From Amoebophrya sp. A120 (Eukaryota > Protista > Dinoflagellata): a stretch of 64,000 nucleotides of DNA. Below are positions 1,224 to 64,000 of the stretch, piece after piece. Location: NCBI GenBank assembly GCA_905178155.1, contig CAJINV010000003.1, positions 1,962,395-2,026,394 of the forward strand, given 5' to 3'. The position numbers were made by a program, and so were the translations under genes. The notes beneath the pieces are model-generated. The model was given only the letters and a program-made list of their open reading frames with translations, made no database searches and had not been told where the DNA came from. The first letter of the stretch is position 1. The number at the start of each line of letters is the position of its first letter.

Positions 1224-4200
1224 TTACTTCGTTTGCAGGAAGATGTACTTCGCTACGAAGCCGCTGCTTGATTCGAAGACGCGGTCTTGTTGTACCTGCT
1301 GCAGCAGGAAGGACGAGGCCGTGGCGATGCTGGCGGGTCCTTCGGTGTAGTATTCGGTGACTAACACCTTGATGATCGCCGCCGTCGCGGACAAGACCAC
1401 GGCCGTCGCGACCACCAGAATGGTGGCCGCGTCTCCCCGGGGGCCAAACTGCTGCCGGACGAACGCCAGAAACTTGGCTCCGACGATGGCGGAAAAGAAG
1501 GAAACCGTTCCGTACCAGAGCGCGTAGGGCATCATGATGCGGTGCAGGAACATGTACTGGAACGTCGTCGACGTGGAGGTGAAAACGACGCACGAGGCAC
1601 TGGTGGCGATCGCGGTCGCGGGGTCGATTCCCATGTGCAGAAAGAAGGGCGAGAAGATCAGCCCGCCACCGATCCCAAACAACCCGCTACCGATGCCCGC
1701 AAAGGTCGCGACGGCCGGGAAGTGCCAACTAGGCATAACTTTTCGTGGGCTCGCAGAGGTGGAGATCCCATTCGAGGAGGATCTCGCGTCGGTTCGGATG
1801 TGCACCGTTTTGTTGATATTCTTCTGATAGTACCCGGTCTTGTTGCTTGTGGGGGGTATATTAATGTGCAGGTCGTTGTAAAAATTATCGGGAGCAGCAG
1901 AGCTGCTGCCAGGAGGGCGGAACAGCTGGTTCCGGTAGAAATAGGCTGTGCAGGTGAGTGAGCAAACCACCGGAATCGATATCCACAAGTAGGACATTGT
2001 GGACCCACGTGGGTACAGATGACTCCGGTACCCGGCCAAAATGGTGATTACCAGCAGCACGGCCATCAGGGTCTCGTCCCGCTTGTCGCGCAGCAGTGTC
2101 TGAACCACCGCAAAGAAGTGCTGCCGCAGTTTGGTACTTATTTCCCCGCTCTTTGTAGCAGCTTTCTGCAGGTAGAGCGACCCGTCGTCCTCGTCCGGCC
2201 AGACGGAGCGGTTAATACTATTCGTGTTCATGATTGTCCCGATGTTGTTCTTACCTTGAAGATTACTATGCACTGGACTTGCTGTGTTGCTAGAATTGCT
2301 GGTGGGACTTTTGGAGTGCTGTGTCAAGTCTACACCGAACGCCGACGGCATCGCTCCGGGGACAAGTCGTGGCGATTTCGTGCTCTGGGAAGATGAGCCA
2401 CTCGTTGTGTACGAGTCAGAGGAGTGAAGGTTCAGAACCAAATCGCGTTGCTTGTCTTCAACTACGTCCGTGTTTATTTCCACGTCGGACGCGGATCCCG
2501 GTGACACGAGCGGAATCTTTTTCTCCTTTTCTTCTGACGATGGAGAAACTCCTGCCAAAGACGTAGCCGCGTGCGCGGATGATCCGCCCTCGCGCCATTT
2601 TTCAATACCCTGCGAGAACGTTTTCATCGCCATCAGCGACAAGAGGATGGCTAGACAAACCACCAAGACGCACGGGTGCACGGAGACGTTAAACAAGACT
2701 CCGAATACCGTTCCAGCCAGCGCCTGGGGTACCACTGCGCACACGACGTTCATGTCCGGTCTCGGTTTCAGCGGGCCGGACGCTGTTGTGCCAGCAGTTT
2801 TAGCATACGACTTCATAGTCAAAAGCACGAAAAATCCTCATGGGTCGTTTTGGTCGCATAACAAACACCCTATCTTTGCAGCACGTGGCAGCGCAGAAAT
2901 TCAAATCTACTGGTAAAACTGACACTGACGGAACTCCTATGTACCTGCTTTACTCGCGTTTCGGGATCGCATGGGCGAGAAAACGCTGTTCGTGTTCCCT
3001 CCTTCTTTTTTCGATGGCGACTCTTCTTCGGATTATCAAATGCAAAAATGTCTGGGTCTGGAAGCATCCGAACTTGTGATGCGTATTTCAGATCCTACAG
3101 AGATCTGTGATGCATAACGTGCAAAAGGTATCCACTTCTGGCCATGCTGAGAGGGCATTTCTCATGCAGAATACGCATCACCAAGGAGCTGCAGAACCTG
3201 TGATGCTAGTCCCTGCATTCCAGACGTGGGGGAGCTTGGAAAAACTGCATGACAAATCTCGCAATCTTCCAGACCCAGACATTTTTGCATTTGATACGGA
3301 TTCCACAAAGGCAATGGCGTCGGGGATTCCGCGACCGTGCGTCGGGCCTTGCGCAGCGGGGTGTGGCGAGGAAACCAGGAAGACCCGGCCGCACTCCCGC
3401 ACAAACCCGGTGAGCTTCTCGACCGTCAGACCACAGCTGGCCACGATCACGCGCATGGCCCCCCCGAAAATGATCGCCTTGGACAGCGGCACCGCCTGGT
3501 GCGGCGACATGTCGTTGCAAAACATCAGCACCACCACGAAAATTCCCCCGCCCCCGATCCCCGACGCGGAGGCGAGGATACCCGCGAAAAAGAGCGCGAG
3601 GGTGGTCAAGACGGTCTCGAAGAAGTAGTCGTAAAAGAGCAACCAATTCCACTCCAACTCCCGGCGGACACTTCGCTGGTGCAAGGGAAGGTTCGCAAAA
3701 CCGGGCCGGTGCCGCGTCTGGTCCGGCAGCGCATTCTCGCGCGGAACGATCTCTTCCTCCAAAATCTGTTCCCGCATCTTTCGGCGCCGGCTGCTGAGGG
3801 AGTCGTCCTTTTCCGCGGGACCCCACCCAAAACGCTCCACCGATTTGCGAAACGAGAATCCGCCTCCTGCTCCTTTGTTTGTTCGTAATTGGATCTGCAT
3901 GGGCTCGACGAGGGATCCCGGGAGTGGGCGCACTGGAAACGACACCCGTGGCAAGGGGTCAACAAAGTGCTTGTGCCCGGTTGTACTAGACGTTGTCCAT
4001 CCTGGAGGTGTTGCAACCGTGGAGGCTTGTTCCTCTTTTCCTTTGTTCTTGGGACCGGCGGTTTCCGCATCACGGCTCTCTACAGCAGACAAGGTAGTGC
4101 AAATCACCGTCCAAATCACTGCGTAATATTTCCGACAGGCAGAATGTCGCTGTAGTCCCGCTCCCGCTGCCGTTGCACCATAACACACACCAAGAGAGCC

Positions 4201-4251
4201 GCCGCTAGCACCTCCATGCCGACCAGAGGTCGGATTCTTCTTCTTAAACAT
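1224..4251 (-). CDS. TauE/SafE (sulfite exporter-like) multi-pass membrane protein, 3 inferred exons
   Basis: Two hydrophobic halves, each with the family Gly motif (ASASGIGGGGIFV; SGLFGIGGGLIFSP...AIATS). The frame joins across the TIR element 3034-3296 (VES|EEESPS) and an inferred GT-AG intron 2783-2944 (SKA|ASGPLKPRPD). Confidence 0.8.
3034..3296. mobile_element. TIR intron element, family 1 (263 bp), in TauE exon
   Basis: Perfect 31-bp TIR TATCAAATGCAAAAATGTCTGGGTCTGGAAG; TSD CGGAT at 3029-3033 and 3297-3301; removal restores the frame. Confidence 0.93.
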
Positions 4252-4910
4252 ACTTTGATAAGGTCATTGAATTCGTCCGTACCCGCAGCTACAAGACTTC
4301 TTTCTTCTTCCTGTATATCATTTTAGGACGCTTCACGTGCTGCCGGCATTCAGGTACATTGCTAGCAACACACGATGATTTATCCCCCCGAGACATTATC
4401 ACGAGGCCGACACTGTCGAACATTTGATGCGATGACGATAACGATTCAAGGACGAGCAAGGGTTCAACGAAATCGAAAGCGATTCTGAATGTATGATCTA
4501 TGCGATGTTTTTTAGCGATCTTCCCGGCCGCTGCAGAGATGGTACTACAACTACACAAGCTTAAGTATATGGGGGTACTTGACAGAAACGAACTATCCCG
4601 CGACGAACAACAGCTATATTCACTAACCTGTGGCCTCTCGACGCGAAATCTTGATTTCGATGTTGTAAGGCCTTCTAAATGTCGTCGTGGCGCAACGTGC
4701 TAGTTGTCGCCAAGTACTGGTCGATGTGTGGCCGGTCTCACACTGCACGAGATTCTTCTTGTTCTCCAAAATTGCCAGAAGGTCCGAGATCATCTTCTAC
4801 TGGTACTGCAAGATGGCTCCTCGATAGCTACTTGCCGTGCTCTAGTATCCTGCCAAAACTCGTGTCAAAAACTGGTGGCGTGCTATCAGTGACGACATAT
4901 TGATGCTTGT

Positions 4911-5119
4911 TATCCAAGAAAAAAACGTTGTTAGTGTAAATTTGTGATGCTCAACATGCAAGATGATTGCGTCTGTCGTGCTTGGCATGCATCGCCGGGT
5001 CCATTAAAGGGCGTTTTCACGTACTATCTGCGCATGACAGGTTTTTGCTGTCATGTCAGGCAAACTTGTAATGCTGTTCCTCCAAAAAAGTTACACCTAC
5101 AATGTTTTTTTCTTGGATG
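4911..5119. mobile_element. TIR element (209 bp, family 6-like) outside any recognisable CDS
   Basis: Left end TATCCAAGAAAAAAACGTTGTTAGTGTAA; right end reverse-complements to CATCCAAGAAAAAAACATTGTAGGTGTAA; TSD CTTGT at 4906-4910 and 5120-5124; internal TGTGATGC/GCATGACA motifs. Confidence 0.8.
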
Positions 5120-5860
5120 CTTGTTGTCTATCATTTACATTAGATGTGGAGGTATGTGATGACTCTGCCGGGAGCTTGCCCGGCCGAAGTCAATCGCAAA
5201 TTTGCTTTAAATCAAATAAAAGTACTCGTCATCGTGTCAGGTTGCTTTTCGTATACCGTCGAGAGCAAGTCGCAAAAGTAAAACAAGTGTATTTTATTAC
5301 GTTTCAGATACATGCTGGTGGATGTTCGAATAAAGAAAGATTTACGATAATGTACGGGTCGCGCACCCGCTCCCGCTGCAGCGCACAGCACCTACAACAT
5401 GCGAGAAGAGCGTGGTGCAGGTGCACGATGACGGTTCATAAGATTCAGATTCCAACAGGGAGATATTATCGCATTACACCAACGGTAAAGGTGAAACGCG
5501 GTGAAGCTGGAGTTGGTGTGCCGCATAAACTTTTTTTAAGCTCGTCTTTCGGATGTCAAAATCAAAAAAATAATTGGTGGCCGTGCGATTGCGAAGCCAC
5601 TACGTTTTTTTATTTTTTCGGAGCTATTTTACACGGGCAGTAGAGAAGTATCTGTTGAGGGGAGCAAAGTATTCAGAAGTATCATTGCATCTTGAGCATC
5701 TTCCCATATCAGCTAGACATCACCTGCCTTCGCTGTATTAAAGAGATAGACACATAGCCACCAAAGCGTGGTTTTGCGCATCATCTACTTGTACGCGGAA
5801 GGAGTCCAAGCAAAGACCTACAGTAAATGCTTTACTTGCGCCGATTCGGTACCCGCTGCC

Positions 5861-8800
5861 TCACGCACCGATGAGATCCGCGTTCTGGTTTAGCGACGGT
5901 GAGTCCCGGCTTCGCGCGGAAGCAGGCTTTCTCTCTTTCTCAGCAGCTGCGTCCTCCTCGCGTAGTTCTCGCTTTTCCTTTTTCTTCTTTTTCTTTTCCG
6001 CCCCGTCGTCGCGCGACTCTTTTTTCTCCTTTTTCTTTTCCTTCTTTTCTTTTTTTTCCTTCTTCTCGCGACGCATGGTTTCCTTACTGGCAGCCTGTGC
6101 GTCCTGTAGGAATTTCCGCGCCTCTTTGGCTTTTCGTTCTTTTTCCTCCTCCTCCTTCGCCCGTTGCTCTTCTGCCTGGCCTAGAAAGCAATCCGCGGAA
6201 ATTCTGTGAATCAAGTAGGCAACGTCGATCGCAGCGGGACAGTAAAAAACGACCGTGAGTGGGAGCCGACCCTTCATCTTTTGCTCTCGCTTACTGCCAA
6301 AGGCCTGCACCACCAGCTGCAGCAGATTCCCCTTCGCGCCCCATCTGAAAGTATAAAGCAAGCATTTCCATTCCCATTGCAAGAATTCCACTTTAGAAAA
6401 CTGCAATAGATCTGTTGGTGTTCATCTTTCTCCGATGTGAACTTCATCTTATTTGGAGTACAACGTCGTAGTCCGATGCTCTCACGACAACAGACAAGTA
6501 AGTACCTCAGCAGCCTTTCTTGGGAGTCTTCCGCGTATGAAAATTTGCGCGTAAAATTGGACTCGCGGTCGGTGGAGACCAATGTGATGCCGTCCAGGGT
6601 GACGGAAATCCAGAATTTCCCGTTTGGCTCCTTCTTGTTCACAATCAGCATGTCGGAAGGCATGCGCGTCATCGCGCGATCGGAATCCGAAAGCTCAATC
6701 GTCTGCTCACCCAACCAGAAGTAACCCCCGTACACCCGAAGCGATTGAAAGGTAGTCATGAACCTGTGGATGGAGCAGATTTCGGACATCCACTCTTCTC
6801 TCTGAATCACCGTAAGGGCACAAAGAAATTTCATTCGTCATGTTCTGGAGGCGGGTCGCCACAAATTGAACTTTCGATAAAAACAATTCCGAAAAACCTG
6901 CTGCAGCTTGTCGATAGCAACCTGATACGTAAAAATTGCTCATATTCTTTACCTGCTCATGATCTCGATTGGTGGCTGCTTCGCGTAATATTTAAAGGTC
7001 GTTTCCCATTGTTTCAGTATGGCTTCTGACCAGTTCGTTTTACTTTGCTGCAAGTGCGAATCAGGAATCAGCCTTCGCAGTTCGTCAGGTGAAAAGCCTT
7101 GTTCCAGCTGTCTTTTCCACGTGCTGCGCTCCAGTAAACACACTGCGGTAGCGCAAGCAGCGATCTGCAATTTTTAGCACAAATTGAAACTCAAGAAATA
7201 GGAATAGCAATACATAGGTTGGCATTCATATAGTCACGGAAGTAGGCCCCACACCAAGAAATCAAGTCATACTAGGTACCTGTTCGTCCGACTCTGGTAT
7301 GGGATATTTCAACCACTCCAGGCGTGCTTGCCTTGTGACGAGGTGGGCGTGCATAATGTCGTGCGGAGAAAGGAGCTCGTTCGGTTTCAGAAAGCGGCGC
7401 TTCCAGAGAAATTTCGACTGCCGTCGCGTCGCGTCATAGAGCTTGTTCCACTTGGCCAGCAGGTCCCACACGTTCGCGTGGTCGGGAATCAAACGGTGCT
7501 GATCCAGCCCCTCCGTCACCTGAAAGAAGGAAAATTCCGCGGGGTGCGTGGAGATGGACAGCTGGGCGGCCAGCTTGGAACCCAGGTCCGCGAGTTGCAT
7601 CGGCTCCGTGACTTGAAATTTCCGCGTCGTGTCGTCCATCAGCGTCACGGTGACGGGAATTTTCTTCACGTTCGAACTACCATCGTTGTCCGGGCTCGTT
7701 TATCCTGTGCAAAAGCATCGTACTCGTACTAATCGCAGTCATGCAAGACGAGTTTCATTTTCAAGCTAATAAATCAGCATCACAAATTCCTTTTGTCATG
7801 CTGAGCTAATTTGTGTTGCAATACTACGAGTACGAGACTTTTGCAGTTCTTATCGTTGTCACCTCGAACTTCTCCATGTGCTTGAAGCACTGCGACACCA
7901 CTGCCAGTACCTCGGCGCAGCCTTCTTCCGTTCGTGTGCGCATTTTGTGCTTCATCAAGAAGGCACGAATATACTCCAGGAGCTCCCCCGCAGGCTCGAC
8001 GTACTGGCACATGAACTCCATCACCTGATTTCATTTTCATAACCAATTGGAGGTCCGTTCGGACGAAATTAATTTGATGTTTGGTAAAAAAAAAATTCTG
8101 CGCTGCCGCTGCATTACGTTTGGACTGATGTGTTACTAACTTTTACTTCTCACCGCGAGTGTCTTTCATACGTAAAAAAAATTTGTTCACTACCAATGGA
8201 ATTCTTGCACTTCTCCTCGAAAAGTGCAACTATGCGTGAGGGCTACAAAAGGTAGCCCCTTGGACGTCGTGGCCTTTTAGACCACATGTGCTAACAAATA
8301 AAACTATAACTACAGCAGCACGCGTCGTTGCGTTTCAAATAGAACTACGGTATACCTTTTCCTTTCTAGCGGATGGAGCAAATAAAAATGCATACAGATT
8401 GATACAGATCGATAAATCCTTAAATCACAAGTAACGCAGGCGCAATTTGAAATACCTTCCAACCAAGCAGCTCGCTTCTTCGATTTGGGTTGTTGTTGAT
8501 TTGCTTCATCAGCTGCAGGTAGATTTCCGTGCGCAGGATGGGTTCTCCTTTTGCCTTGAACACGATGGCGTACGCGAGCGGCATGCGCTTCGCCTCCGTT
8601 ACCGGTCGGTCGTTCATTATGGGAGTGTCAGAGTTGAAATCGACAAAGTTGAAATAGCTTGTAATGCATAAAATCGATACCAGTTGCAAGCCCAATTTGT
8701 AAGCGGCGCATGACAAATTTCGCAACCGTATAAATCCAGTTTGTCATGCTGTTTTGGCACAGAAGACTGCTTTTGTCATGCTCCTTTAGCAGCTCTATCC

Positions 8801-11800
8801 CAAACCCTAAATAGGCTCACAATCTGCCTCACTTGCCATCCCGGCAAGACAGGCACTTCATGCCTTGCAGTTTCTGCATGAGAAATTATTTCAACTTTGT
8901 CGATTTCAATCCTGACGCTTCCATATTCATCCAACCGAGAATATTTCGGTGTACTGACATGGCCGCCTGCGCGTAGGTATCCGGCAGGATGGAGAGGGGT
9001 CCCGGAATATCAAATGTAAAAGTGATGTCTGGGTCGGGAAGAATGCAACTTGTCATGCTAAATCTAGAGCATGCAAAAATCTGTATTGCATGACTGCCAA
9101 AAGTCGTCCAGTTTTGACCAAGTCGGGAGGGAGTTTCTCATGCAGGATAGGCATGAGAGAGATCGCACAGAATCTGTCATGCTAGGTCCTGCATTCCAGA
9201 CTTCATGGGTCATGGAGAAGCTGCATGACAAATCGCGCATTCTTCCAGACCCAGGAGACATTTTTACATTTAATACGGAAGTTTGGAGCGCGACCACGAC
9301 AGAATGCCGCCGCTGTCCATGGGATGGAAGACCCGCCCGTCTTCCAGGCGCAGCGTGCGCACCACCTTGGGGTTGCACAACGGGCACGTCGCCAAATCCC
9401 CGTACACCGAGATGGCCGTCTCCAGGTCGCGCTGCGTAGCGTCCTTCCCAAACATGGTGCCTCGTCTGCCCTGGTCTTTGCGCACACACTTCTCTATTTC
9501 GATCAACAGCTCCCGATCCAGGTCCATACCCTTACCGGCCCGGAGCAGATTCGCGGCTTTTTTCACCAGCAGCTGCTTCTCTCGGATGCCGTTCATTTTG
9601 CTCGGACTAGAAGAGCTTGTGGAGGATGACGAGGACTTTTCCGGGCTGGCACTGGGAGAACAAAAGTTTTGCTTGTATTCGTCGTAGCACTTTTGCAGCG
9701 CCTCTTTGACAAATTCATCGGAATGCAAATTCCGGAACATGGCGCGGGCTTCTTCCAGCTCGGAGGCGGCTATACCATTCGACACGGCGCACTCCAGCAA
9801 GGTACTCAGGGCTTTCTGGTCCATTTCCGCGACGGCATCCGCGAGACGCCCGCAAATCTGGTGTCAGTTGCAAACGAATGTTAATGGCGTATTTCTCATG
9901 CAGTGGCACCAATGCACGTGGTGCTGATGGGAAGGTGTGTGCATGGCAGGGTAAGTACCATCAACGAAACACGTACGCAGACAAACAAAGCGTACACCAT
10001 GGCAAGGGAGAAGTACCCTCAAGTTCATCAAGATCAAGTAGAAGTACTCAAAACCACAAACCTGGTCTTGTTGCATGGGCGTCATCTTTGTGACAGTCAT
10101 GTGCCGGCTGCTGCGCGTCATCCTCCTGATCGTGTTCCGTATCTTGGCCGCTTCGTGGCTGTCACCGGCGGCCTCGGCAGCCTGTTCTTGTTTTTCGAGC
10201 TCGGAGCGACGTTGCTTTTCTTCCGCGGCGCGAGCCTCCTCGGCATCCCGGCGGGCTTGCTCGATTTTTGCTGCATCCACTCGCGAGCACACATCGGTGT
10301 GCAACTTCGCAACCGTGACATACAGCTTGTGTGCCTCGGGATCCAGCCACTTTGACCTGTAACAATCGATTTTTTTCGCTTTATTACACGACAGCACCAG
10401 CGAGTGGCGAGCAACTACAATTGTTCCCGAGAATGAATATGAAGACGAAGAGCGGAATTTGAAGTTTTTTCTCCTACGTTCATGCTCGATGTAAAACCAA
10501 AAATTGATTCGTATGGATGATGTTACGCGTCCTCCCCCAAGCCTGACTGCTGGCAGGTTTCTATCAGATTGCGCACGGACAAAATCGCCTTTTCGTTGTC
10601 AACTGGAATTGGTTCCGCCGCGTCGATACTTCGCAAAGCGTTGATGAGCGGCGTCTGGATGGCAATCTGCGACGCCCGCCATTTGATTTCGTCCAAATCC
10701 TTTGACGCTTTGATTTTTAGCTTCGCAAAGACCGCCAGCGCCTGGTCGAGTTCGACGAAGTCCATGGACTTGAGCAGTTTCGGCAGTCCCTGGAAGAGGT
10801 CGCGCTCCTGCTGCATCTTGTGTAACAGCTCTTCCAGGGTTTTGCACATGGGTGGCACCGGGTAGGCCTTGTACGCCCGGGCGAGCAGCACGTTGCACTG
10901 TTCGATCTCCGACTGCAAGCCCTGGAGGGCACCGAACACCACGCATCCGTGCTGGTTTTCGCCCTGGTACAACTTGTGCTTGTTGATGTAGGCAGAAATG
11001 TCGCGCTGGTACTTTTGGCTCGCTTTTACCTGTTTCCGCACAACGAAACCTCGGTACACGCGCTGAATCTTCGTGACCACACCCGTGTAGGCAAACCGCC
11101 TCGCGGTATCCAGCGCCCTCTGCGCCGCGGACTTACAAAAAACCTTGGTCTTTCCCATTTGGAAATCCTTCGCGCGCACGCGGGCTGTCATGTTTTCTTG
11201 TAGCTACTAGGTCACAAGCACATAACATGACCAGATGGAGATGAATAAAGAGCGAAACAAAAATCGCGATAATGATGATGAACACAATGCGAGTCTCACA
11301 AAATTTTTACATAGACCGGATAAAAATTCGAAGCAGTAGTAAGTACAATCCCCGAGCAACACTGGCAGCTTCTCAAATGCCAGGGCGAGTGTTTCTGGTG
11401 CGGAGATCGGTTTCCCGGTTTTGCCCTCGAGTTCTTTGCGCAACTCCAAGGGGACGACACACTGGTAGCGCCCGAGGAAGTCCTTGATCGGCATGCGGAG
11501 CGGATACCCCTGCTGCCGGATTTTCACCGCTTCCATAGCGCCCGAGTAGATAAGCTGCTCGTATACCATGTTGGGCACGAATTTGTTGGCCACCTTGTCC
11601 GCGTTGGGCTTGATGCAGCGGATGAAGTGCGGCTGCGACTTGTGGATGTTGTCCATCAACAGGCTGAGGGACTCCTTGAAGCTCATGGCCACCGTCTTCT
11701 TCTTCCCGGGCCCCCGACCGCGCCCCGCGGCGTTGGACGCGGCTTCCTGCTCCTCGGTCATGTCGCGCCCGATTTTTTGGAGGATCAGGTTGTATGACAG

Positions 11801-14800: not shown

Positions 14801-15178
14801 TCGTGAAAGTTGTAAACTTTTCGTGCGATTATAGCGATTGGTTTATCTTTATTCCGCACAAGCACAGGTAACTCTTTCATGCAGATAACACAGTGGAAGT
14901 TGCTTCTTCATCTTGTTATCTATTTTTTCACTTTATACGATAGTTTACCTTTTTCTCAATGTTTCCAGAATAGCCCCAGGGGAAACCGTTTCCATGGAAA
15001 CGATATTGCCCACGCCTTGCAGGTGCTCATCGTGCACCACCCCAAGAGTTTCTGAGGTGGGCAAGACGACGGTGTCTCCATTATCGCACGTGTACGTAGT
15101 CTTGCCGTCGCCTTCTTCCGACACAAAGCCTGGCGTGAAGACCAGGCTCTTGTGGGGCACCCAGAATTTCTCCGACAT
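5861..15178 (-). CDS. Myosin heavy chain A: motor, IQ, MyTH4, FERM-like domain, K/E-rich tail
   Basis: After splicing: NPFQMLNLY, GESGAGKTE, NNNSSRFGK, LLDIAGFE, PHFIRCIKPN, GKTKVF, IQRVYRG, EIYLQLMKQINNNP (MyTH4), then a FERM-like region. Seven TIR elements plus inferred GT-AG introns at 14793-14948, 13655-13873, 12851-13041, 11185-11346, 10357-10526, 9858-10061, 8025-8455, 7165-7279, 6764-6952 and 6345-6505. Confidence 0.92.
7701..7852. mobile_element. TIR intron element, family 4 (152 bp), myosin A
   Basis: Imperfect TIR (TGCAAAAGCATCGTACTCGTA / TACGAGTACGAGACTTTTGCA); TSD TCGTT; removal gives FEVTT|SPDNDGSSNVKKIPV. Confidence 0.85.
8618..8925. mobile_element. TIR intron element, family 2 (308 bp), myosin A
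   Basis: TIR TATGGGAGTGTCAGAGTTGAAATCGACAAAGTTGAAATA (few mismatches); TSD TTCAT; removal gives RNILGWMN|DRPV, matching RNILGWMTDHPV in the paralogues. Confidence 0.92.
9008..9275. mobile_element. TIR intron element, family 1 (268 bp), myosin A
   Basis: Ends TATCAAATGTAAAA...TTTTACATTTAATA; TSD CGGAA; removal gives WSRSKLP|GPLSILP. Confidence 0.9.
11793..12014. mobile_element. TIR intron element, family 3 (222 bp), myosin A
   Basis: TIR TATGACAGTGCACAGCTCCCCCTCCCCCTCATTTGT (2 mismatches); TSD GGTTG; removal gives KHSNN|LILQKIG. Confidence 0.92.
12089..12370. mobile_element. TIR intron element, family 5 (282 bp), myosin A
   Basis: Ends TATCCTGAGTAAAAACGTCCCCAC...GTGGGGACGTTTTTACAAATGATA; TSD CAGTG; removal gives HYAGEVKYNCT|GWLLKNQD. 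Confidence 0.9.
14155..14460. mobile_element. TIR intron element, family 2 (306 bp), myosin A, inverted relative to 8618-8925
   Basis: Ends TATGGATGTGTCAGG...CCTGACGCTTCCATA; TSD GTCCG; removal gives YAKAAD|TTELSPHIYSI. Confidence 0.9.
14519..14727. mobile_element. TIR intron element, family 6 (209 bp), myosin A
   Basis: Ends TATCGCAAGAAAAAACTGTTTCACTGT...ACAGTGAAACACTTTTTTCGTACGATA; TSD TCTGG; removal gives AVNPFQ|MLNLY. Confidence 0.88.
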
Positions 15179-24678: not shown

Positions 24679-25495
24679 CTTTCTGGACTGGTGATGTGCT
24701 TTAGTTTTTCCTGTTTGCTTTCTTGTTTAGTACGAAATTTTAGGAAGCAAAGAACGCGATTTTTTCACACACTTTGACTTTATTTTGTTTTGCAAAAACA
24801 AAGTTTGTTGAAGCCAGGAAAATTGTGTTCGTCGTGTTGTATTTTATTGATGCGATGGCTTCTGCTCTACTTCGTCGTGTGAATTTTACTTCGGTATATT
24901 AGCTCCAACTCCGGGTTACGTTTGTCAGAGAAACTACAGAATGAATTCACAAAGTTCAAGTTGTTTTATTGTTGTACAAAAGAATTTCAAAAGGGATAAT
25001 TGCAAAATTACGGCCTGCCAGCGGCAGCTCGGCACCAACACCTACTCATGTGCAGCCTCATAAATTCGAAAATTTGTTTTACCAATTGCGATGTTGTTCG
25101 GGAATTTGAAAATTTTGTGATAAAAAAGATGTTAGCTAGTCAAAAATTGGGTCACAATTACCACAGGGGCGAAGGTGACTGGCGGTTTTTTTTTTGGCTT
25201 CAATGATACAATCTTCAACTAAACGACGGTGGAAAAACTACGGGAAATAGACGCGTCAGAGGATGTAGGAAAGCAACCAAGGTACGTACCGAATGGGTTG
25301 TGGCTGAACGAGCAGTTCCTATTGCTACGATGAAACCGACCGCTGTTGCGTATTACAACTTCACTTCGCACGATATTATGCCATCATTTACGCGTACGAT
25401 GCTATTGCTGTTCATGCTGACGATAAGATGAAATAGGTAAGCACATTCACACTGCTTGAGGACGACACCGACTCCGTCTACAATCTCATTAATTC

Positions 25496-25547
25496 CGAGC
25501 ACGGACCGAAGATGCTTCGAGCACGGACCGAAGATGCTTCGAGCACG
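25496..25547. repeat. 22-bp tandem repeat, about 2.4 copies
   Basis: CGAGCACGGACCGAAGATGCTT twice plus CGAGCACG, no spacers. Confidence 0.85.
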
Positions 25548-52079: not shown

Positions 52080-55000
52080 TGAAGTCTCCGACTGATATCA
52101 TTTGACAAAGATTGCCCCAGGGTGCAACGTGCAGAGCCTGAGACGGACATTGTCCAATGATATAGAGCCCGGCGAGGCAGTATCGCCTACGCAGGCCCGC
52201 GTCGTGCGCGACATGTGGATCGACAGCGGAGATCTAGATCGCAAATTCGCAAACTCACACTCTGATCGAACCAACGCAAGGATACAAGTGGCGCTGCTCA
52301 CTCAACCACCACCTTTGCGGGGCGATACAGTCCTGGCCGACACTCTAGCTAACTAACGACGAACAACAACAACGAAGCTTTTTTCTTGTCTCGTCACCTG
52401 GCGAAGCCAACCCTTGCAAGCTTTTGAAGGGAGGGAGCGGACGGGTCTTTTCAAAACTTGCAGCGGAGCCACGCCTTTCCTGCAGGCGACGGCTCGAACT
52501 CAATAGTTTCCATCTCAAGTAGCTACTTTTTTCGGGCTTTTGAGGTACTCGCAAAGGGGAGGTGGCGCACACTAACTCACCTCGACTTTCACCGCGAAAG
52601 CCGTGCGGCCCCACATACAAAAAGATCGCCGCGCTCTCAGGATGGAAGCTAGCTAGGAAGTGAACACCAACAGCAGAACCGTCTGTAGCTAATTCTTGTG
52701 CCAACCAGAATTAGCTAGGGCGCACTAGAAATCTTTTTCAGTCTTCGTATCCTTTCCTGCGTCTACGATTTCACTCTGGATCAACGTATTGCGCATGCTC
52801 AGATCCTTAATGAAATCTCCGACTGATATCATTTGACAAAGATTGTCCCAGGGTGCAACGTGCAGAGCCTGAGACGGACACTGTCCAATGATATAGAGCT
52901 CGGCGAGGCAGTATCGCCTACGCAGGCCCGCGTCGTGCGCGACATGTGGATCGACAGCGGTGATCTAGATCGCAAATTCGCAAAATGCGTAACATCCACC
53001 ACTTCCGATCCTGAGAACAGCGAAGCTTTTTGAAGGGTGCACCCCTGCCCTAAACACTTCACTACTGTGAAGCGGCGTAGCCCTTTGCGGAAATGAAAAC
53101 CAGAGGCAGCAATTGGTCGACCCACTGAAGTCAATTAGTTGTCCTCAGCAAAGTCGAAGATTTTGGCCAAACCATTTTTCCAGGTGCGAGACACTCTAAC
53201 CGCGAACGATTCTAGTTTTGCTAGATAATCGCTCCAGTTGCCGCCAGCGCGACAGCATCCTATGCGCGCGGGGAAACCGATGATGGCTGTAGCTTCTTCG
53301 TTCGGGAGTCGATGTTTCAATTTTTCAAAGAAATCGCCGAGCGCCTGTTGGAACCACGCCAACCGCTTTGCCTGCGTTTCCGCATTACCCTGCTGGTTCT
53401 TCGGCGGTAGCCCTGGCTTGTGTTGGCCATACAAGTTTGCTACTAACTTGCTTGCACGGGTTGAAACCTTTCGCAGATCCGCCGTGCCCGGGACTCTTTT
53501 GTAGGACTTCGCGCACGTGTTTGCTGGTGGATATTTGAAAAGTATCTTCTTCGCTATACCTTCCGCTTTTCCTATGGTCAGGCAGTTTGTCTGGTGCGCG
53601 ATCACATTCATGTTGTCTGCTAGAATTGATCCCCGCACATGCACCAGCGGCACTCTTTCCGGCTTTACTTTCTGGCTTGCTTTTCTCTTCGGCTTCTCCA
53701 ACAGTGCCAAGGTACTTTCCGAGTACCCTTCGCACTTTGTCTGCAGACTTTGCGCTGGCACTGTGCTCAGCACCAGATAGGTGTCGTCTGTTGGCGGTAG
53801 GTCTACCCAGCTTGCTCCTTTCCATACTTGGAATATCGATTTATTCTTCTGGAATCTGCTCACCGTGTGAAACTTCGAATGCAAATAAGCAAGCCTGCTT
53901 TTGTATTTTGGAACTAAAACCAACGCCCGGGGGCGCTGTGCTTCCGGGACTTTCATGTAGTCCACCAATTTCTTGAGGACCGGCATAATTGCAAAGCTGC
54001 CTGGATGCCACCAACTCAATTCCAGCGCCATTTCGTGGTCTGTGGTCTGGTACGCGTCCGTGATGTGGTTTTTGAAATAATCCACCAGTCTGCTGTGACC
54101 CTCACGATCACGCATCGCGTCCACTGTTGGCGTGATTTTCAGCCTTGAGCATACCGACGACAACGCTTCTGGTTTTAGTCGTTTGCTCGGGTTCTGGTCG
54201 TACAGCGTACTGCTGAGCTGTAGTCGGCTGATCGCGTCTGCTATCACATTATGCTTGCCCCGCACATGTTGCGCCAGCATTTTTATTCCCAACCTGTTTT
54301 GCATCAACTTGATGGCCTTGGCTTTTTCTGCGAGCCACTGTTTCCGCCCGGTCCCAAAGTTGATGTAGTGCATGGCACTGGTATTGTCTGTCCGCAGAAG
54401 GATAATTCTGCCCGCAAAACGTTCGCCGTATTTTTTTAGCCATTCTGCGACTGTGGTCAGATCCCTTTTGTTGGAGTGTCTTTGGTCGATTTCTTCGCTG
54501 AAGTCGCCCTCGTGCCGCACTTCGTCCCCGTCCGCCGTCAGCCCCCAATGAAACCCGCTAGCATCACTTGTGACGATCATGAAAGAGGCGGGATCAATAT
54601 CTTGGAAGATTTCGGGATGATCAAGCAATTCCGGAGTAAACAGGAAAGATAAGCCCTCGGTCGTGGAAAAGATGGGGATAAAAGGATCGTCTTTGAGGAC
54701 TTGAAGCCACCAAGAAAAATCTGCTATGACCGCAGCGGAGAGCTGGGGAGATGGACTGAAAGACTTGCGTCCTTTGGTCCATGCAGCGATAGCCCCCGAA
54801 TCCCCAAGCAAGTCGTAAGCGTTCCGCAGAAATGCGCGCCCAGCCGAGACAACAAAGGAGATGAAGTTCAACTTTCCTACTATCGACGCCAGATCTTTTG
54901 CGTTCGTTGATAATCCGTTCGCGGCCTCTTGCAAGCATTTTCTAATGCTGCAATATACTTTTCGCGTTGTTCTGGGTCCACGTAAATCCGCATCTTGATG

Positions 55001-55643
55001 GCGTTGATCATGAACCCTATCCAGCAGATGCACTGCGTCGGATAAGTCATCTTATCCAGCTTATCCGCCCGGAATCCATGTAAAACCAATCCTGGAACGA
55101 AGGAAAAGGCGCGAAGTTTTAGAGGCACGAAGGTCGTCCCCTTACCGCTCACGCGTCGGATTTCGGAGGCGGCTTCGCAACACTCAGGGGCTTCCGACCG
55201 AAGATGACGAATAAATAGCTGAGAACAGTTTAACCGGGACTGGCAGCGACGCACACTGTGTGCAAACATTACACAAGATGCACACTGCGCGCAAGCGGGA
55301 ACTAAAGTGGCAAACACATCTTGCGTTGCGGGCCTTCTGGCCACATGCGTTCTAGCATGCTAAACTTTTGGACGTGATGTCTTTCATTACGTCCCAACTG
55401 AGCCCAAGCAGCGAAAGAGGCTGTCGCGTCGACGACTTACTTTGGCTAACCGAAATCCTACAGCCTTACCGCACGGCGCGTCGGATTTCGTGCCGTAATC
55501 ACTCAAGCTAACGAGGTCTTTCAGCCTTTAACTTAGTCCTTTCTATCCTATACTAATAGCTACTTTTTTCGGACTTTTGAGGTACTCGCAAAGGGGAGGT
55601 GGCGTACACTAACTCACCTCGACTTTCACCGCGAAAGCCGTGC
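52080..55643 (-). mobile_element. Deleted tyrosine-recombinase-class retroelement, copy 2
   Basis: Appears identical to 42093-45656 at +9,987, with the same split direct repeats. Confidence 0.8.
53135..55087 (-). pseudogene. Retroelement pol remnant (RT end, RNase H, MTase-like, macrodomain), copy 2
   Basis: The 632-aa ORF translation is identical to 43148-45046 and carries the same frameshift. Confidence 0.8.
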
Positions 55644-58600
55644 TGCAACTTCATTGTTGCTATTCGCGCCCGTCGCCGCCGCGGCCTCGGCGGCGGCCTT
55701 CTCCCCCGCGGCCGGCGGCGGTGCGGTCTTGGCCATCGTGTCCATGCACTGCGTGGCCATGGTCAGCAATTCCTTCTTTTCGGGCAGCTCCTTCTCGAAC
55801 TTCTGTTTGGACTTGACCAGAAAAGCCCGCACGTACTCAATGAAGTCGGGCGTGGGGATGGCGTGCTGGAAGATGAAGGCGAGCAGCTTCCACCCTAAGA
55901 GCTGGGACCGCAGCCCCGGGTTGTGGGTGAGCTGCTTGATCACCTGCGCGTACATCTCGTTGGTCAGCGCCGCCTCGGACCGCGCCTTCCACACGATCGC
56001 GTACAACAGCGGCACGCGCCGCTTCTCGTCCACGGGGTGGTCCGTCATCCAACCGAGCACGTTTCGGTAGGCCGCGGTAGCGGTGGAGTTCATGCTGGCG
56101 TCCCCGATGTTCGTCAACGGGGCGGACAGCTTATTCTTGCTCCACGCGAACGTGCCCCCGGGCTCGCACGGAAGAATCTTATTCCCGTCCGGACCCGTGA
56201 TGGGCTTTACCACATCCGTGTTGATGCAGGGGGCCTTGCTCATGTCACCGTACAACGCCATCACCATGTCGAGGTTACCCGACGCCACTTTACCGTCCCT
56301 GGGGTTGATGTTGATGCGTGTTTATTCAGATATAGAAGAGTGCACATGATCAGCGATCGAGTTTTCAAAATTCAAACGCACTGGAACTGGTGCCGGCCTA
56401 GATGCGAGACGAGCCGTTTCCGTTTGTTTCTACAACAGTGCATCTGCATGTATGACTAGAATACAATTAGCATATGCAAACAGAAACACTTTAGGAAACA
56501 CGGGGAAAAAACACCAGAAGTGATTAATACCTTTGGAACAGGGACCCACGTCGAATATGGGCGATGCGCGAAGCGTTTTCCGCCTTTGTGAGAAGATCGG
56601 CGTCGACGCCCGCATCTTGTCCGGCAAGAGCTAAATTCGCGACCTTGGTGGCCAGGCCGTGAAAATCTTTCTTGGCTTCCAGGGTTTTCAGACAGGAATG
56701 CAGCTGTTCCTCGATCCACCCGGGGTCCATAAGCTTCGTCAACATTTCTCGCGCAGGCTTCAGATCGTTGGCGTCCACCTGTCCATTCGCCACGCACGTT
56801 GACAGGGACGCTTGGATCCCCCGCTTGTCGCAATTGTTGATGGCCGCCGTCAGCAACTTTACGAGCTCCTTGGGAGAATCGTGCTTCAACTCGTGCTTCT
56901 CGAGCTTCTCCTCGTCCAACTTGCTCTTCAGCCGCTCCCACTGGGCTTGCAGCTTCACAAATTTCGCGCCCGCCTGCTCGTCCAACCAATCGGACTGGTT
57001 TTTTAACCCCTTCTGGGTAGCCTATGCGTCAGAGAAAATAAAAACTTTCACTTTGTTTTAATTGAAAAGAAAAACCTCATTAGGCTGAGGCTAGCTCTAG
57101 CAGGTGAAGACTGCAGCAGAAGCAAAATCACATAACGCTATGAAAGCATGCTACCACGAAACAAGTTGACAGGAAGAACGAGCTAAAAGTCGAAGAAACT
57201 TTTATTTACCTGCTCCACGACGTGCTGCAGCCGCTTGCATGCGTCGAGGTCCGACGGGCTTGGGTCGGTTCGGTCGGACAGACCGGCCATGGCGGTGATC
57301 AGCGGCAGCTGCACGGAGAGCATGTCGAGCCGGACCGCCAGGCGCTTGGCCACTTCGTCCTCGATTGCCAGATTGGTCAGCTGGGAGACCGCGGTCTGCA
57401 ACTGATCCAAATCGACCGTCTTCAGCAATGCGTTCATGTCCTTGTAGACTTCGTACTCCTTGTGGAGCTTCGTTTGACAGGTGAGAAACGCCGCTTCGCA
57501 CACCTTCAGCTTGGTGCTCATGGACTCGATCTCCGCCCGCCACTTCTTCACCTGGTCGCACTCCGCCTTCAACTTGCCCAAGTCGTTCTTAAACGTCGCC
57601 AACGCGTTGGTGTTGGGCGTGTTCGGTTTGTACAACTTGGAACCCGTCGTCTTCATCCAGTTTTGCGTCATGCCGCGGAGCTCCCGCGCCCGCTTCGTCA
57701 TCTTCCTCGTGCGGTAGCCGCGGAAGGCCGCCTGGATTTTGATGGTTTTCTCGAGTGTGGCAAACCGCACCTGCTCGTCGAGGACTTGGTGGCCCCGAAG
57801 ACGGGCCATCACCTTGGTTTTTCCCATCACGTACTGGCCCTTCAACTCCGGTTGGTGGAACACCTCCGGAAGGCGGTCCAGAATCAGCGTAACCACCGCC
57901 GGGTCGGGGAGCTTTTTGCCCGCTTTTTTCTCACATTCCATCCGGAGCTTCACCGGAAAGCACGCGCGGTACTTCCGGCAGAACTCGGCGGGCAAAGCGC
58001 GTAACGGATACCCCTGCTGCCGGATTTTCACCGCCTCCATGGCGCCGGAAAAAATCAGCTGCTCCAACACCTTCGCGCGCGTGAAAATCTTCGGTTTCTT
58101 CTCGTCGTTGGGCTTGATGCACCGGACAAAATGCGGCACGGCGGAACGAATTCGCTCCATTAGCGTTTTCAGCGACGCGCGGAACTGGGTTGAAACCGTC
58201 AACTTTTTCTGCTTGCCCTCTTCCTCCAATTGCTTCCCTAAATCCCGCAGCAACTCGTTCTTCGAGGTCTTCAGCACGTCCATCGCCTCGGGCGGCGGGT
58301 CGTCCGTGTTTTTTTCATGCACCCAGCCACCGACATTGTAGGTGACCTTGCCGGCGTAGTGGGTCAGCGTGAACTCCGGCGGGTCCTTGTTGAACTTGTC
58401 CGCCTCGAAGTAAGCATTCTTCTTGGTTTCCATCAGCTTCCCCAGATTGTTCATAAACGTCTTGTCCGTTTGCCGCATCCCTTTGGTGGCGTCGTCCAGT
58501 ACGCTGAAGATGGAGTCCCTGGGCGCGGCAATCGTGTCCAGGATCTCCTGGTTGTCCGCGAACGTGATGCCCTCGACGGAAACCCCCTCCGCCTTGTAGT

Positions 58601-60999
58601 CCGCCATCTCGCGCTTGAACACGAATTCGTTGAAGTGCTGTTGCAGGTTCTCGTTGGACAAATTGATCGTGATCTGCTCCCAGGTGTTGTTGGGGAAGGA
58701 CTCGAAGCCGGCGATATCCAATAAACCCACCTCGATCTTCTTCGCGCTGCTGTTCCCGATGTCCCCGGCGACAACCTTGTTTAAGTTTTCCATCAGCCAG
58801 GCGAACAGTCGCGAGTACACCAGCGTGGCTAACCCATTCCGCGCCTCGTTCGCCAGCTCCGGCTTCAGTTGCTTCACCGTCACGTCCTTCCCGACGATCA
58901 GCTTCTTGTTCGTGATCGCGGTCTGCAGCACCTTGTCGTCGCACTCCCAGGCGGTGGACACCTCCTTGGTCTTGTCGCAGATGGACGAATCGTTTTTCCC
59001 CGCTTGAAAACTCACGTTCCCGAGCAATAAAATGCCCGCCACCGCCTTGAACAGGTCGGCGCGCTTCTTCTCGCCGATGGTGACGTCCTCGAAGGCCGAC
59101 ACCACCTCGTTGTACTCGGTTTTGTCATCCACACCGTCGGCGAGCTGGGCTCCGCTTTTCAGGTAGTTGAAGTCGCTCCACTTCGTGCCCTTCGGCAGCC
59201 CGTACTTCGCCCCGTCCGGGCCGTGCAGCAGCATGTAGAAGATGTGAAAGTTGCGCTCCAAACTGGTCTGCTTCAGCACGCGCGACTTCTCCAGCAAGTA
59301 GTCCACCAGCAGCGCACCGTCAATGGAGCCCTTTTGCCCGAACATGATCGCGGTCCACTTCCCGAACCGGGACGAGTTGTTGTTCCGGGAGGTCTTCGCG
59401 TTCCCAAAAGCTTCCAAGATCGGGTTGCACTGCATGATGCGGTCCTGGATGCGGCTCTCGTTGTGCCCGGCGGAGTCCGCGAAGAACCCCAACATGATCT
59501 TACACGCTTCGGTCTTCCCCGCCCCGGACTCTCCGGAGATCAAAATCGCCTGGTTCAAACTCTCGCGCACGCACCCCGACAAAGCGGTCTTGGCGATGGA
59601 GTACACGTGCGGGGGCTGCTCCCGGGAATCCGCCGCGTTAATGTACTTGTCCATGACCTCGGGCGTGTCCAGGCCCAGCCGCTCGAAGGGGTGTGAAGTG
59701 TAAAAGTGTCTGGGTCTGGAAGGATCCGAACTTGTGATGCGTGTTTCGGATCCTACGAGAAAGATCTGTGATGCACAAACGTGCAAAAGGTGCCCACTTC
59801 TGGCCTTGCTGAGAGGGCATCTCTCATGCAGAATACGCATCAGCAAGGAGCTGCAGAACCTGTGATGCTAGGCCCTGCATTCCAGACGTGGGGGAGCTTG
59901 GAAAAACTGCATGACAAATCTCGGAGTCTCCCAGACCCAGACATTTTTGCAATTCATAAGGGGTTGCAGGAGACGATGATCTGGTCGATCATCGTATAGA
60001 TCTCCCCCTTCCCGTACCTATGCATTGCAAAAGTATCGTACTAGTAGTAATTGCATTCATGCATTACAAATTTTTTTCTTAAGGTAAATCCGCATGACAA
60101 ATTTTATTTCTGATGCTGGGGAAATTTGTATTGCATTTATACGAGTACGATACTTTTGCAATGCATAGTACCGGGTTTCCAACGACTGCAGCACCGCGGC
60201 GTTCACCACGGACCGCAGCTGACACACGTCGGGTAAGCCCATCAAATGGTCGTCCTCCACGTCGGCCATATCACAGTGAAAAATGCCCCCCACCCCTGAA
60301 ATTGCAAGAATCTGTGATGCGAAGTTTCCAAATGAAAGCTTTTTGTCATGCATGAAAGGAGTACGAATCTTTCTGATGCAGATTCTAGTCGTGTCTCGCA
60401 TCGCTTGCATGACAAGCACCGCTCTTGCTGGGATCTTTTGCAATACAAATTTTTGCTATTCACGATCGGAAATCTGTGATGCTGATACACGCAAGAGGGC
60501 GAATGTTTCATTTGGAAAGATTTGCAATACAAATGCTTTCAAGTTCGGGGGTGGGGGCATTTTTCATTGTAATAGGCCACTTTCGTGATCTCCTCCGCGG
60601 TCAGCCACACCACCTCCTGATATGCATTGCAAAAATGACTGGGTCTGGAAACATGGAACTTGTAATGCTAGTCCTACATTTCTGTAAGATCTGTATTGCA
60701 TGACCAACAATAAAGTAGCAACGCGCTCTTTTGTCATATAAAAGCGCAGCTTGTCATGCGGACTGCGCATGGCAAAGTGTTCGGCAAACTTGTCATGCTT
60801 GGCTGCCTTGGGAAGTATTGCAGTCGTCCACAGTTCAGCATCACAAGTTTTCAGACCCAGACGTCGTTGCATTTGATACCTGACTCGCGTTCTCGATCTG
60901 GTAGCCGCGGACCTTCTTGCCCTTCATGTCCTTCGTCTGCCCCGTGTCCTTCGCCATCACGTACCCCTCGACGGGGTGCGGAATCCACTGCTTCAACAT
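55626..60999 (-). CDS. Myosin F: D-type paralogue truncated after MyTH4, with its own 5' end; may be a pseudogene
   Basis: Same truncation as E. The 5' exons carry synonymous changes and a different element set (60269 present, 40255-type absent). Confidence 0.75.
59692..59958. mobile_element. TIR intron element, family 1 (267 bp), myosin F, copy of 49705
   Basis: Same sequence, TSD AGGGG. Confidence 0.9.
60019..60167. mobile_element. TIR intron element, family 4 (149 bp), myosin F
   Basis: Same as 40045 and 50032, TSD GTACC. Confidence 0.9.
60269..60574. mobile_element. TIR intron element, family 5-like (306 bp), myosin F only
   Basis: Ends TATCACAGTGAAAAATGCCCCCCACCCC...GGGGGTGGGGGCATTTTTCATTGTAATA; TSD GGCCA; removal gives ITKVA|DVEDDH; absent in D and E. 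Confidence 0.92.
60621..60878. mobile_element. TIR intron element (258 bp), myosin F, same site as 40552 but diverged
   Basis: Perfect TSD CCTGA; ends TATGCATTGCAAAAATGACTGGGTCTGG...CAGACCCAGACGTCGTTGCATTTGATA. Confidence 0.88.
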
Positions 61000-62224: not shown

Positions 62225-64000
62225 TTACTTGAGTCCCGGCCGGGTTGTCGAGAATGAATACTCAGCGCTCCGCATACGATTCGTCTGGCTCGCGTTGTAC
62301 AGCTGTGCGTGGTGTGCAGCGGCAGAAAGACCGCGCCTGGAGACTACGGCTCTATTGAGAGAGTCCATCTGGGCATCCAGTATTTCCTGCATTCTGGCAC
62401 CAATCCTCTCCATTTCCAAAAGCCGCTCCCGGCGCGTCAAAGGCTGACGTCGTTTTGTAGATTCGTTGTCGTTCGGCTGATGTCGCGGAAAACAGTGCGA
62501 TTACGTATACCTCTTGCTATTCCATTGGAAAACCGCAAAATCAAATTAATCTATACGAGAAAAAACGCCTGCGGAAATGTATGTAGGTATACCTTTTCTG
62601 GGTCGTCGGCATCCCCACCCGCATCGCCAGCAGCACCACCAGCCCCCTTTTTCGGGGTTCGGAGGTTGTCACTTACAGCTGATGTCGCGCTGCCGGCGAC
62701 TTCAGTCGACGCAGTTGCCCCACGACTGGCAGTTGGTGGTACCAGAAGCAGCCGAAATTCATCCTCGTCTTTGTCTTTCTCGTTCCCTCTAGTACCGCCC
62801 CGACGCGGTGGCGTCGAGGAGGCCAGTCGCTGCTTGAACTCTGGACTACGCAGTTGCCGCTCGATCCGGGATATCAAATGTAAAAATGTCTGGGTCTGGA
62901 AGATTCTGAGACTTGTCATGCACGTTTTGCATGGGCCATGATGTCTGTGATGCATGCCCTAGCGTCACAGACTTTTTGAGGGCTCTGCGATGCCTATTCC
63001 GCATGGCAAATGGAAATGCCCTCACCGCGTAGCCAAAATTGCATTCCCTTTGCTACTTATGCAATACAGATTTTTTTGGAATCCAAATGCAGCATCACAA
63101 GTTCGGATTCTTCCAGACCCGGACATTTTTGCATTTGATACGGGACTCGACGCCGGACTTCAACGTGGCCACAGCTTGCTGCTGCCTCGGCGTGGACATC
63201 GATACTGTCGCTGACTCCGACAAGAGCAGGCCTTTGCTTCGTGATCCTCGCAGCGTGGTCGCATTATCGCTCTTCTCCTCTGATGCTCCTGGCTGAGGAT
63301 TTTTCTCTTGTTCACCTGCAACTACTCCCGCTGGGTCTGCCTCTGTATTTCCTCCTCTGGATTTGTTCTTTTGCGGGGGAGTGCTTTTGACGAACTGCGC
63401 CGGTTGTCCAGATCTTCGTGTAGAAGAAGTTCCAGGCGACTCGCCGGCGACCACCATAGAACCACTTCCCGGTGCGCCGGAAGCAGATGGTGCGACCGTG
63501 ACCACGGTATTGATGTTCTGCCACGGATTACTTGCGCTGCTACGAGCCCCGCCCGGACGCGTCGCGCTCCCCGGCCGGGCTCGCGCGTTGCTTGGTGGTT
63601 TATTTCGGGGACCAGGAGGTCTTTGCGGTGCACGGAGGTGTTGCCGCTTGTAGGCTAAAGAGAGACTCGTCGAACAACCAGAATTATCGCCAATATTGCC
63701 CGCTCTCAAAGTGCTCACGGTCACAGTACCTCCGCCGTCGGTACCGTCACGCTGCGGGGCGGAAGCAGAACTGGCTTGCGCGACGACCCCAGCGCCGCTG
63801 CTGCGCGATACTAGAAAAACGCGCGGGCTTGGACTGGCTGCTGCTCGTACTCGCATCGGAGTGGCCGCGGCGCTGCTGGACGAGGGACCACTTTTTATTG
63901 TCGCGCCGCTTGGGGGCAGCACGGAGTAGGGCTGTCGGGCGTCTTTATCCGGCTGACTTTTCAAAAGCTGCCGTTGTAAGTGTCTCGCATAGGGTAGATC
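62225..64000 (-). CDS. 3' part of an unknown low-complexity (S/A/G/P-rich) protein gene; 5' end probably outside the window
   Basis: Three ORF pieces join in frame across element 62872-63140 (VESR|IERQLR) and a GT-AG intron 62444-62592 (DPEK|PLTRRERL). No domain recognised. Confidence 0.6.
62872..63140. mobile_element. TIR intron element, family 1 (269 bp), inverted relative to 3034-3296
   Basis: TIR TATCAAATG(T/C)AAAAATGTC(T/C)GGGTCTGGAAGA; TSD CGGGA; removal restores the frame. Confidence 0.92.

Follow-up and report, generated by a model that had tools for sequence, protein, structure and literature searches.

Inverted-repeat introner elements in the myosin genes of Amoebophrya sp. A120 and the signals their removal may read

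How does a eukaryote remove tens of thousands of introns that have no splice-site dinucleotides? This question is at stake in a 64,000-nucleotide (nt) stretch of Amoebophrya sp. A120 (assembly GCA_905178155.1, contig CAJINV010000003.1, positions 1,962,395 to 2,026,394 of the forward strand; hereafter the window), in which several genes, most of them myosin genes, are interrupted by short elements with terminal inverted repeats (TIRs) and a 5-bp target site duplication (TSD). The elements are almost certainly the published introner elements of this organism, and the class is thus already known, also in the A120 genome itself. They are very probably taken out at the RNA level, each together with one copy of its TSD. 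How this is done is narrowed by our analysis, not solved.

A TSD-first scan of the window gave 25 rows, compared to 0, 0, 0, 2, and 1 rows in five shuffled sequences. Two weak rows with termini two mismatches off TAT/ATA (8363-8523 and 21373-21655) were dropped and two elements whose TSD copies differ at one base (40552-40803 and 50539-50790) were added, so that the inverted-repeat and TSD scans together yielded a final set of 25 TAT...ATA elements of 149-308 nt. The same count as in the original prediction was obtained for coding inserts, namely 24 at 17 independent sites once myosin copies A, B, and C, which are tandem and nearly identical, are counted as one; the remaining element (4911-5119) lies in a 3' untranslated region (UTR) and brings the sites to 18. 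The 5-bp TSD is exact in 23 of the 25 elements. Read inward, the first three positions are T, A, and T (35/36 ends each at the 18 sites), and positions 11-15 carry an A in 24-31 of the 36 ends. TIRs span 20-58 nt and define about 8 families, close to the roughly seven first proposed, while interior similarity separates 10 families among the 18 sites. Stop codons occur in at least two frames of every element, all host genes lie on the minus strand, and an Rfam search returned no matches. Being short, bounded by TIRs and a TSD of fixed length, devoid of coding capacity, and matched by empty sites, the elements resemble miniature inverted-repeat transposable elements (MITEs) acting as non-canonical introns, as had been proposed.

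A120 introners were described as 29,850 copies with inverted repeats (IRs) of 8-20 nt that read TAT, seven variable nt, and then AAA, direct repeats of 3-5 nt, and non-canonical borders validated by RNA sequencing (RNA-seq) (Farhat 2021, PMC7789003). The window elements lie in the A120 genome and share the same IR ends (TAT, 7 nt, and a stretch of A), the division into families, border direct repeats within that size range, absence from RNA with non-GT-AG borders, a MITE-like structure, and the mixture with GT-AG introns. They differ from that description in a TSD of strictly 5 bp, in TIRs of 20-58 nt, and in an internal motif common to all families (PMC7789003). The text of that paper reports no transposase, no family-specific IR motif, and no U1 small nuclear RNA (snRNA) found in A120. 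Most A120 introners were later classed as TIR DNA elements (Gozashti 2025, PMC12130899; rows 1-38 of its 58 A120 rows considered). The A120 families there comprise, among others, fam38, which has a 5-bp TSD and TA/TA termini without Ginger termini, and fam3, in which 998 of 3852 copies have GT and 1014 of 3852 have AG (PMC12130899). Compared by lengths and termini, and not by sequence matching, the window families resemble these A120 families in being TIR elements of about 150, 209, 260, and 305 nt, of which roughly one copy in four has GT and roughly one in four AG. Thus, the original prediction was right to place the inserts with the Amoebophrya introners, the system being the same A120 one (PMC7789003, PMC12130899).

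Evidence for removal comes from four sequencing runs aligned to window positions 1-16000. None of the runs listed as covering the window is registered as RNA. Runs X1 and X3, from one sample, were taken as RNA, a putative status based on the absence of GT-AG introns and on a depth that varies by gene, and junctions were derived from contig piece coordinates and record lengths rather than from raw junction reads. In both runs, ordinary introns are missing and piece edges fall at the TSD borders 5116, 7695, 9276, and 12371. A model of myosin gene 1 without its seven GT-AG introns and without seven elements, each with one TSD, has lengths of 2473 and 2645 nt, which are exactly those of records 8 and 7, whereas removal of the elements alone (2493 and 2660 nt) or with both TSDs (2453 and 2630 nt) does not match; the two records also overlap by 30 nt, as the model expects. 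Only removal of the element plus one TSD opens a myosin frame of 1541 amino acids (aa), compared to 716 aa for removal of the element only, 688 aa for loss of both TSDs, and 673 aa if the elements are kept. The UTR copy (4911-5119) is likewise gone, the rest of record 6 predicting a bin depth of 8.25 and 8.25 being observed. In total, exact removal of the element plus one TSD is supported at 8 of the 9 sites in this region (the site at 3034 has no spanning piece), and none of these eight can be GT-AG. The claims that such removal rebuilds the myosin and that ordinary GT-AG introns coexist in the same genes are therefore both upheld.

Deposited proteins agree with this unit of removal. Myosin copy C (55629-60999, minus strand) aligns with the A120 protein CAD7939285.1 over 933 aa without a gap once four elements and one TSD each are removed, indicating that the public annotation already treats the elements as introns; no deposited protein for copies A or B was retrieved in our protein searches. 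The assignment to A120 is supported by an exon of the window that shares 100% identity with a protein deposited for Amoebophrya sp. A120. Transposition is supported by reciprocal empty sites, each with a single 5-mer, between copies A and B on the one hand and copy C on the other.

Precise loss of an element and one repeat would also be expected if the elements were eliminated at the DNA level during the transcribing stage, as happens to the internal eliminated sequences of ciliates, with which they share TA bounds, TIR and TSD flanks, and a transposon origin. We consider this very improbable. In the DNA-like run X5, depth is flat at 22-31 across exons, introns, and spacers, and contigs continue at that depth for 25-31 nt into the element ends, uninterrupted at every TSD listed. 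An empty allele is therefore unlikely to be common in that sample, although rare variants are lost in contigs and the sample may not represent the transcribing stage. Moreover, the RNA-like runs still contain element sequence at depth. On the elements, the summed X5 depth is greater by a factor of thousands, as would be seen with a repeat present in very many copies. A further raw-read RNA run (X9, 2026, same species label) contributed 24 partial reads that match only family-1 TIRs, with other flanks (window 3263-3296 and 9025-9065), suggesting a related strain that shares family 1.

More copies were obtained from a second assembly, a single metagenome assembly found by a pattern scan with the family-1 TIR, of which 147 loci (476,593 nt) were analyzed; picked in this way, the loci are biased toward family 1. 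Its RPB1 is best matched by that of Amoebophrya AT5.2 (86%), with no A120 protein among the matches listed, and one window exon found no match in the assembly (a weak test). Among 200 short TAT..ATA pairs, an exact 5-bp repeat flanks 153 and a one-mismatch repeat 25, while an exact 6-bp repeat flanks none; 124 of the 153 copies match window families at 68-94%. This set was complemented by a larger one of 308 copies, for which the internal motif discussed below was required. Reading frames are clear on both flanks of 39 of the 308 copies, 32 on the same strand and 7 called on opposite strands, and all 32 same-strand copies need a 5-nt spacer. The essential RPB1 gene contains four coding copies, one of them 972 nt long with an unrelated interior, and their removal restores a gapless or near-gapless alignment to the closest homologue. 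A fifth RPB1 copy (L068:6533-6772, by locus and position) is nested in an ordinary GT-AG intron, about 20 nt from the donor; the RPB1 copy with a mismatched TSD sits inside an ordinary intron and so gives no register information. The insertion phase of 132 coding copies (L001-L147) is uneven (30/44/58, P = 0.012), perhaps reflecting a target or codon-composition bias.

Which signals could the removal read? Sliding the boundaries through the TSD reaches GT-AG at only 2 of the 17 coding sites (40045-type and 40552-type), as originally stated, compared to a simulated chance rate of 4% (P = 0.15). In the second assembly, GT-AG is possible in 7 of 110 coding copies with an exact TSD (null 4.4 +/- 2.1), GT alone in 50 (null 49.1), and AG alone in 52 (null 54.4), and neither the TSD nor the flanks of these 110 copies show a consensus. 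The GT(GC)-AG borders of canonical U2 introns are thus not a property of the elements. Orientation is free as well (21 vs. 17 copies).

Hairpins next to short direct repeats are classic substrates of template switching. The removal might accordingly read the repeat itself, either by RNA recombination or through a reverse-transcriptase template switch that mimics splicing during library making, since every element combines a hairpin with a short direct repeat and the length removed is always the element plus one TSD. Nevertheless, this is improbable. Genes with seven frame-breaking inserts, or four in the case of RPB1, need correction in the cell, and in the second assembly, where interior homology places 139 coding copies, 30 have between 1 and 3 mismatches in the TSD and still keep the frame. 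The mismatches are spread evenly over the five TSD positions.

These data make it more likely that removal follows a ruler set by the pairing of the ends than that it reads dinucleotides or matches the repeats, as GT and AG are at chance, orientation is free, TSD mismatches are tolerated, and the ends are paired in predicted folds. In 16 of the 18 elements the ends are predicted to pair at most positions, and in the other two from position 8 onward. Per copy, the termini decay less than the TSD (13/834 vs. 42/1390 sites, P = 0.03), and neither end is free of changes in the terminal T/A (9/234 and 4/228). A register test on mismatched TSDs of the second assembly (22 and 30 sites) gave codon log-odds of 2.5, 7.3, 2.7, 7.9, 10.8, and 8.0 for registers 0-5, with one stop, in register 0 only. 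Overall, recognition by a hairpin-based ruler is probable.

Recognition is one matter and the cutting machinery another. An adapted U2-type spliceosome that has given up the U1-dependent reading of GT could remove the same elements from RNA, with the hairpin or the TAT/ATA ends placing the sites and the internal motif or a nearby A serving as branch site. A near-complete spliceosome without a detected U1 snRNA in A120 (PMC7789003) and the tunicate precedent (PMC13326754) are consistent with this, as are the U-tract at 11-15 nt and the motif at 33-49 nt from the element end, which are present in either orientation, and termini that are slightly more conserved than the TSD bases. On the other hand, any fixed register would take at least one splice-site dinucleotide from the random TSD, which has no consensus. 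Known cases do not have such random dinucleotides, and Fritillaria keeps AG/AC, AG/AT, and YAY (PMC13326754). The terminal T/A changes at both ends and the ordinary introns of the window, none of which (0/7, three with provisional edges) carries the motif or end pairing, also speak against it. We regard an adapted spliceosome as a credible possibility, if somewhat short of even probability. Non-spliceosomal chemistry, which would be analogous to that suggested for euglenids, lies slightly ahead because one border dinucleotide is random in any register, though its probability is only about even. The 'second, structure-guided pathway' of the original prediction fits the data as a possible route, with an adapted spliceosome nearly as likely.

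Our tentative reading, which we place a little below an even chance as a whole, is that the elements are non-autonomous inverted-repeat transposons, kept in DNA and cut from RNA by a putative dedicated, non-spliceosomal cut-and-join machinery that measures from the hairpin. Judging from their anatomy, they would have been inserted by a DDE transposase acting in trans through a 5-bp staggered cut. After transcription in either orientation, the RNA ends are predicted to pair and would bring both TSD copies to the foot of the stem. The element plus 5 nt would then be removed from coding or UTR sequence alike (supported by lengths at eight sites), recognition relying on a ruler from the stem and on TAT/ATA and the A/U tract at positions 11-15, not on GT, AG, or TSD identity. 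Both cuts may be placed at the same depth, k nt, within their respective TSD copies, and an endonuclease plus a ligase, as suggested for euglenid non-conventional introns, could perform the chemistry.

Several points weigh against this reading. RNA support covers 8 of the 18 sites, leaving 10 without it, and consists of contig-length bookkeeping in one sample with a guessed RNA status, in which compensating errors inside a multi-element gap are possible. The decayed copies at 4911 and 7701 are removed exactly despite having lost their outermost pairs, which means that removal can do without pairing at the outermost stem positions. Folding z-scores (-4.9 to -13.8) tell no more than the presence of the TIRs does. 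Symmetric TIRs give both orientations the same end sequences, U-tract, and motif near the 3' end, so the remover may instead recognize sequence. A contrast between coding and non-coding copies rested on only four non-coding copies. In addition, of 89 spliceosomal proteins A120 has retained 83, among them U1-70K, U1A, and U1C, along with U2, U4, U5, and U6 (PMC7789003). A review treats Amoebophrya as a case of spliceosome adaptation (PMC11282704), and in Fritillaria it is an altered spliceosome that removes non-GT-AG introns (PMC13326754). Finally, no transposase for the elements was found in the sequences scanned.

A shared internal motif, TGTVATGC, connects the families. It is present in every window family at 2-5 copies per element, typically 33-49 nt inside each end, with 62 copies in the 4485 nt of the 18 independent elements compared to 3 in 40,358 nt outside them (shuffle mean 0.4). 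In the second assembly, 150 of the 153 elements carry it (500 motif copies, shuffle mean 3.4), and at nt 29-58 it points inward at 190 of 306 ends and outward at 34; a further 454 occurrences outside called elements in 392 kb of those loci probably belong to elements that were not called or have decayed. Transposases typically bind repeated motifs near the element ends, which makes a common enzyme the likeliest interpretation, and TGTVATGC is therefore likely a candidate binding site, predicted from sequence, of one transposase for all families. With such a common site, a single enzyme could mobilize numerous families despite their differing TIRs. The motif is not described in the literature examined, which did not extend to some figures and supplements of the introner papers, and as a shared internal motif it is possibly new. 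It is tempting to go further and view all A120 families as one system, in which a single trans factor would bind TGTVATGC on either DNA strand or in either RNA orientation and one transposase would spread TIR families by the hundreds. A second nuclear splicing machine, independent of the spliceosome, would then remove any sequence up to about 1 kb lying between such ends by measuring five nt at the stem foot, whatever the exon sequence. This broad view is doubtful.

A search for a transposase, as first suggested for long TIR copies, detected none in five long copies from the family-1 TIR loci and none in the 107 long frames examined out of 127 (loci of about 477 kb in all). The A120 fam38 elements (about 810 nt) have open reading frames (ORFs) that are weakly similar to Copia/Gypsy integrases (PMC12130899), whereas none of this kind was seen in the long copies here. 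Long copies of 457-972 nt (L068:5017-5988, L044:3862-4492, L043:571-1051, and L022:4307-4763) combine family ends with unrelated interiors, like captured cargo, with no transposase-like ORF seen. A search of viral contigs with the family-1 TIR gave no matches.

Ginger2 transposons have TG..CA-type termini, unlike the TAT..ATA ends found here. Their TSD of 4-5 bp (PMC10045372) does include the length observed. The suggested relationship to IS3EU holds with respect to the TA..TA termini and the presence of TIRs, both of which are also found in IS3EU/GingerRoot elements, a group characterized by an IS3/IS481-like DDE transposase, but not with respect to the TSD, which is usually 6 bp in that group (PMC10045372) and 5 bp here, an exact 6-bp repeat being absent from all 200 pairs; membership was therefore rejected. 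Euglenid non-conventional introns share terminal pairing, TSD-like repeats, a proposed MITE origin, and the co-occurrence of GT-AG introns (PMC12501133, PMC11282704). They carry a CAG/CTG signature with a purine after the 3' site and are excised as circles (PMC12501133, PMC11282704), with fixed spacers measured from the paired motif in Euglena (PMC12501133), whereas no such motif was found at the ends of the window elements. The introners of Micromonas and Aureococcus and the introns of Fritillaria are also MITE-derived at genomic scale, but these keep or co-opt fixed splice dinucleotides, of which the A120 elements keep none (PMC11282704, PMC13326754). Among the Amoebophrya intron and spliceosome literature, we found no paper that resolves the removal mechanism, and the available text of a 2024 review leaves the question open (PMC11282704).

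The elements are distributed over the window as follows. Although most hosts are myosin genes, as predicted, two elements, both of family 1, have other hosts: 3034-3296 (263 nt, exact 5-bp TSD) in a minus-strand gene for a TauE-family membrane protein, and 62872-63140 (269 nt) in a minus-strand gene whose tested upstream exon has no Pfam match. The UTR copy likewise belongs to the system in addition to the coding inserts first listed. The RNA-like runs cover the TauE/SafE-family gene (1224-4263) at low depth. Myosin gene 1, with a transcript that spans 5116-15682 on the minus strand, contains at least seven GT-AG introns, the UTR element (209 nt, one terminal base decayed, removed from RNA), and seven coding elements at 7701-7852 (152 nt; its first 7 nt are unpaired in the fold and removal is still exact), 8618-8925 (308 nt), 9008-9275 (268 nt, family 1, next to RNA piece edge 9276), 11793-12014 (222 nt), 12089-12370 (282 nt, next to RNA piece edge 12371), 14155-14460 (306 nt), and 14519-14727 (209 nt). 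Myosin gene 2 has a family-1 element at 24307-24569 (263 nt), and myosin gene 3 one at 31438-31744 (307 nt).

Three tandem myosin copies (motor and MyTH4) occupy 35400-61000 with a period of about 9987 nt. The tail exon of copy A carries an element at 35539-35777 (239 nt). Two sites are filled in all three copies, namely that of the family-1 element at 39715-39984 in copy A (270 nt, one terminal base decayed; 49705-49971 in copy B and 59692-59958 in copy C) and that of the 149-nt element at 40045-40193 (GT-AG register possible; 50032-50180 and 60019-60167). The element at 40255-40465 (211 nt; 50242-50452 in copy B) is confined to copies A and B, copy C having an empty site with a single 5-mer, while the one at 60269-60574 (306 nt) is found in copy C only and its site is empty in copies A and B. 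At a further site, the element at 40552-40803 (252 nt), for which a GT-AG register is possible, has TSD copies that differ at one base, a non-synonymous difference; its duplicate at 50539-50790 in copy B also has an imperfect TSD, and copy C holds an element with an exact TSD at the same site (60621-60878, 258 nt). In this one pair (40552-40803 and 60621-60878) the interiors have diverged markedly, with the ends and most motif copies alike. Toward its 5' end the middle myosin copy matches copy A, and toward its 3' end it matches copy C, a pattern like that of an unequal-crossover product or an assembly artefact. Between the myosin copies, a stop-free frame of 638 residues (43148-45064 and 53135-55051) has no Pfam match and could represent either the tail exon of a myosin or a gene of its own.

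With the elements themselves known, our analysis narrows the question of their removal. Each removal takes the element and exactly 5 nt more, GT and AG are about as frequent as expected by chance, and orientation and TSD identity are irrelevant; even the UTR copy and the 972-nt cargo-bearing RPB1 copy are handled like the other elements. Two handles emerge, as copies with mismatched TSDs mark the cut register and the shared internal motif can serve as bait for a binding factor. If the reading proposed here is true, a sequence-independent, scarless intron would add a new chemistry to splicing and could also serve as a tool. If the spliceosome is the remover instead, the elements would show how far its rules can relax.

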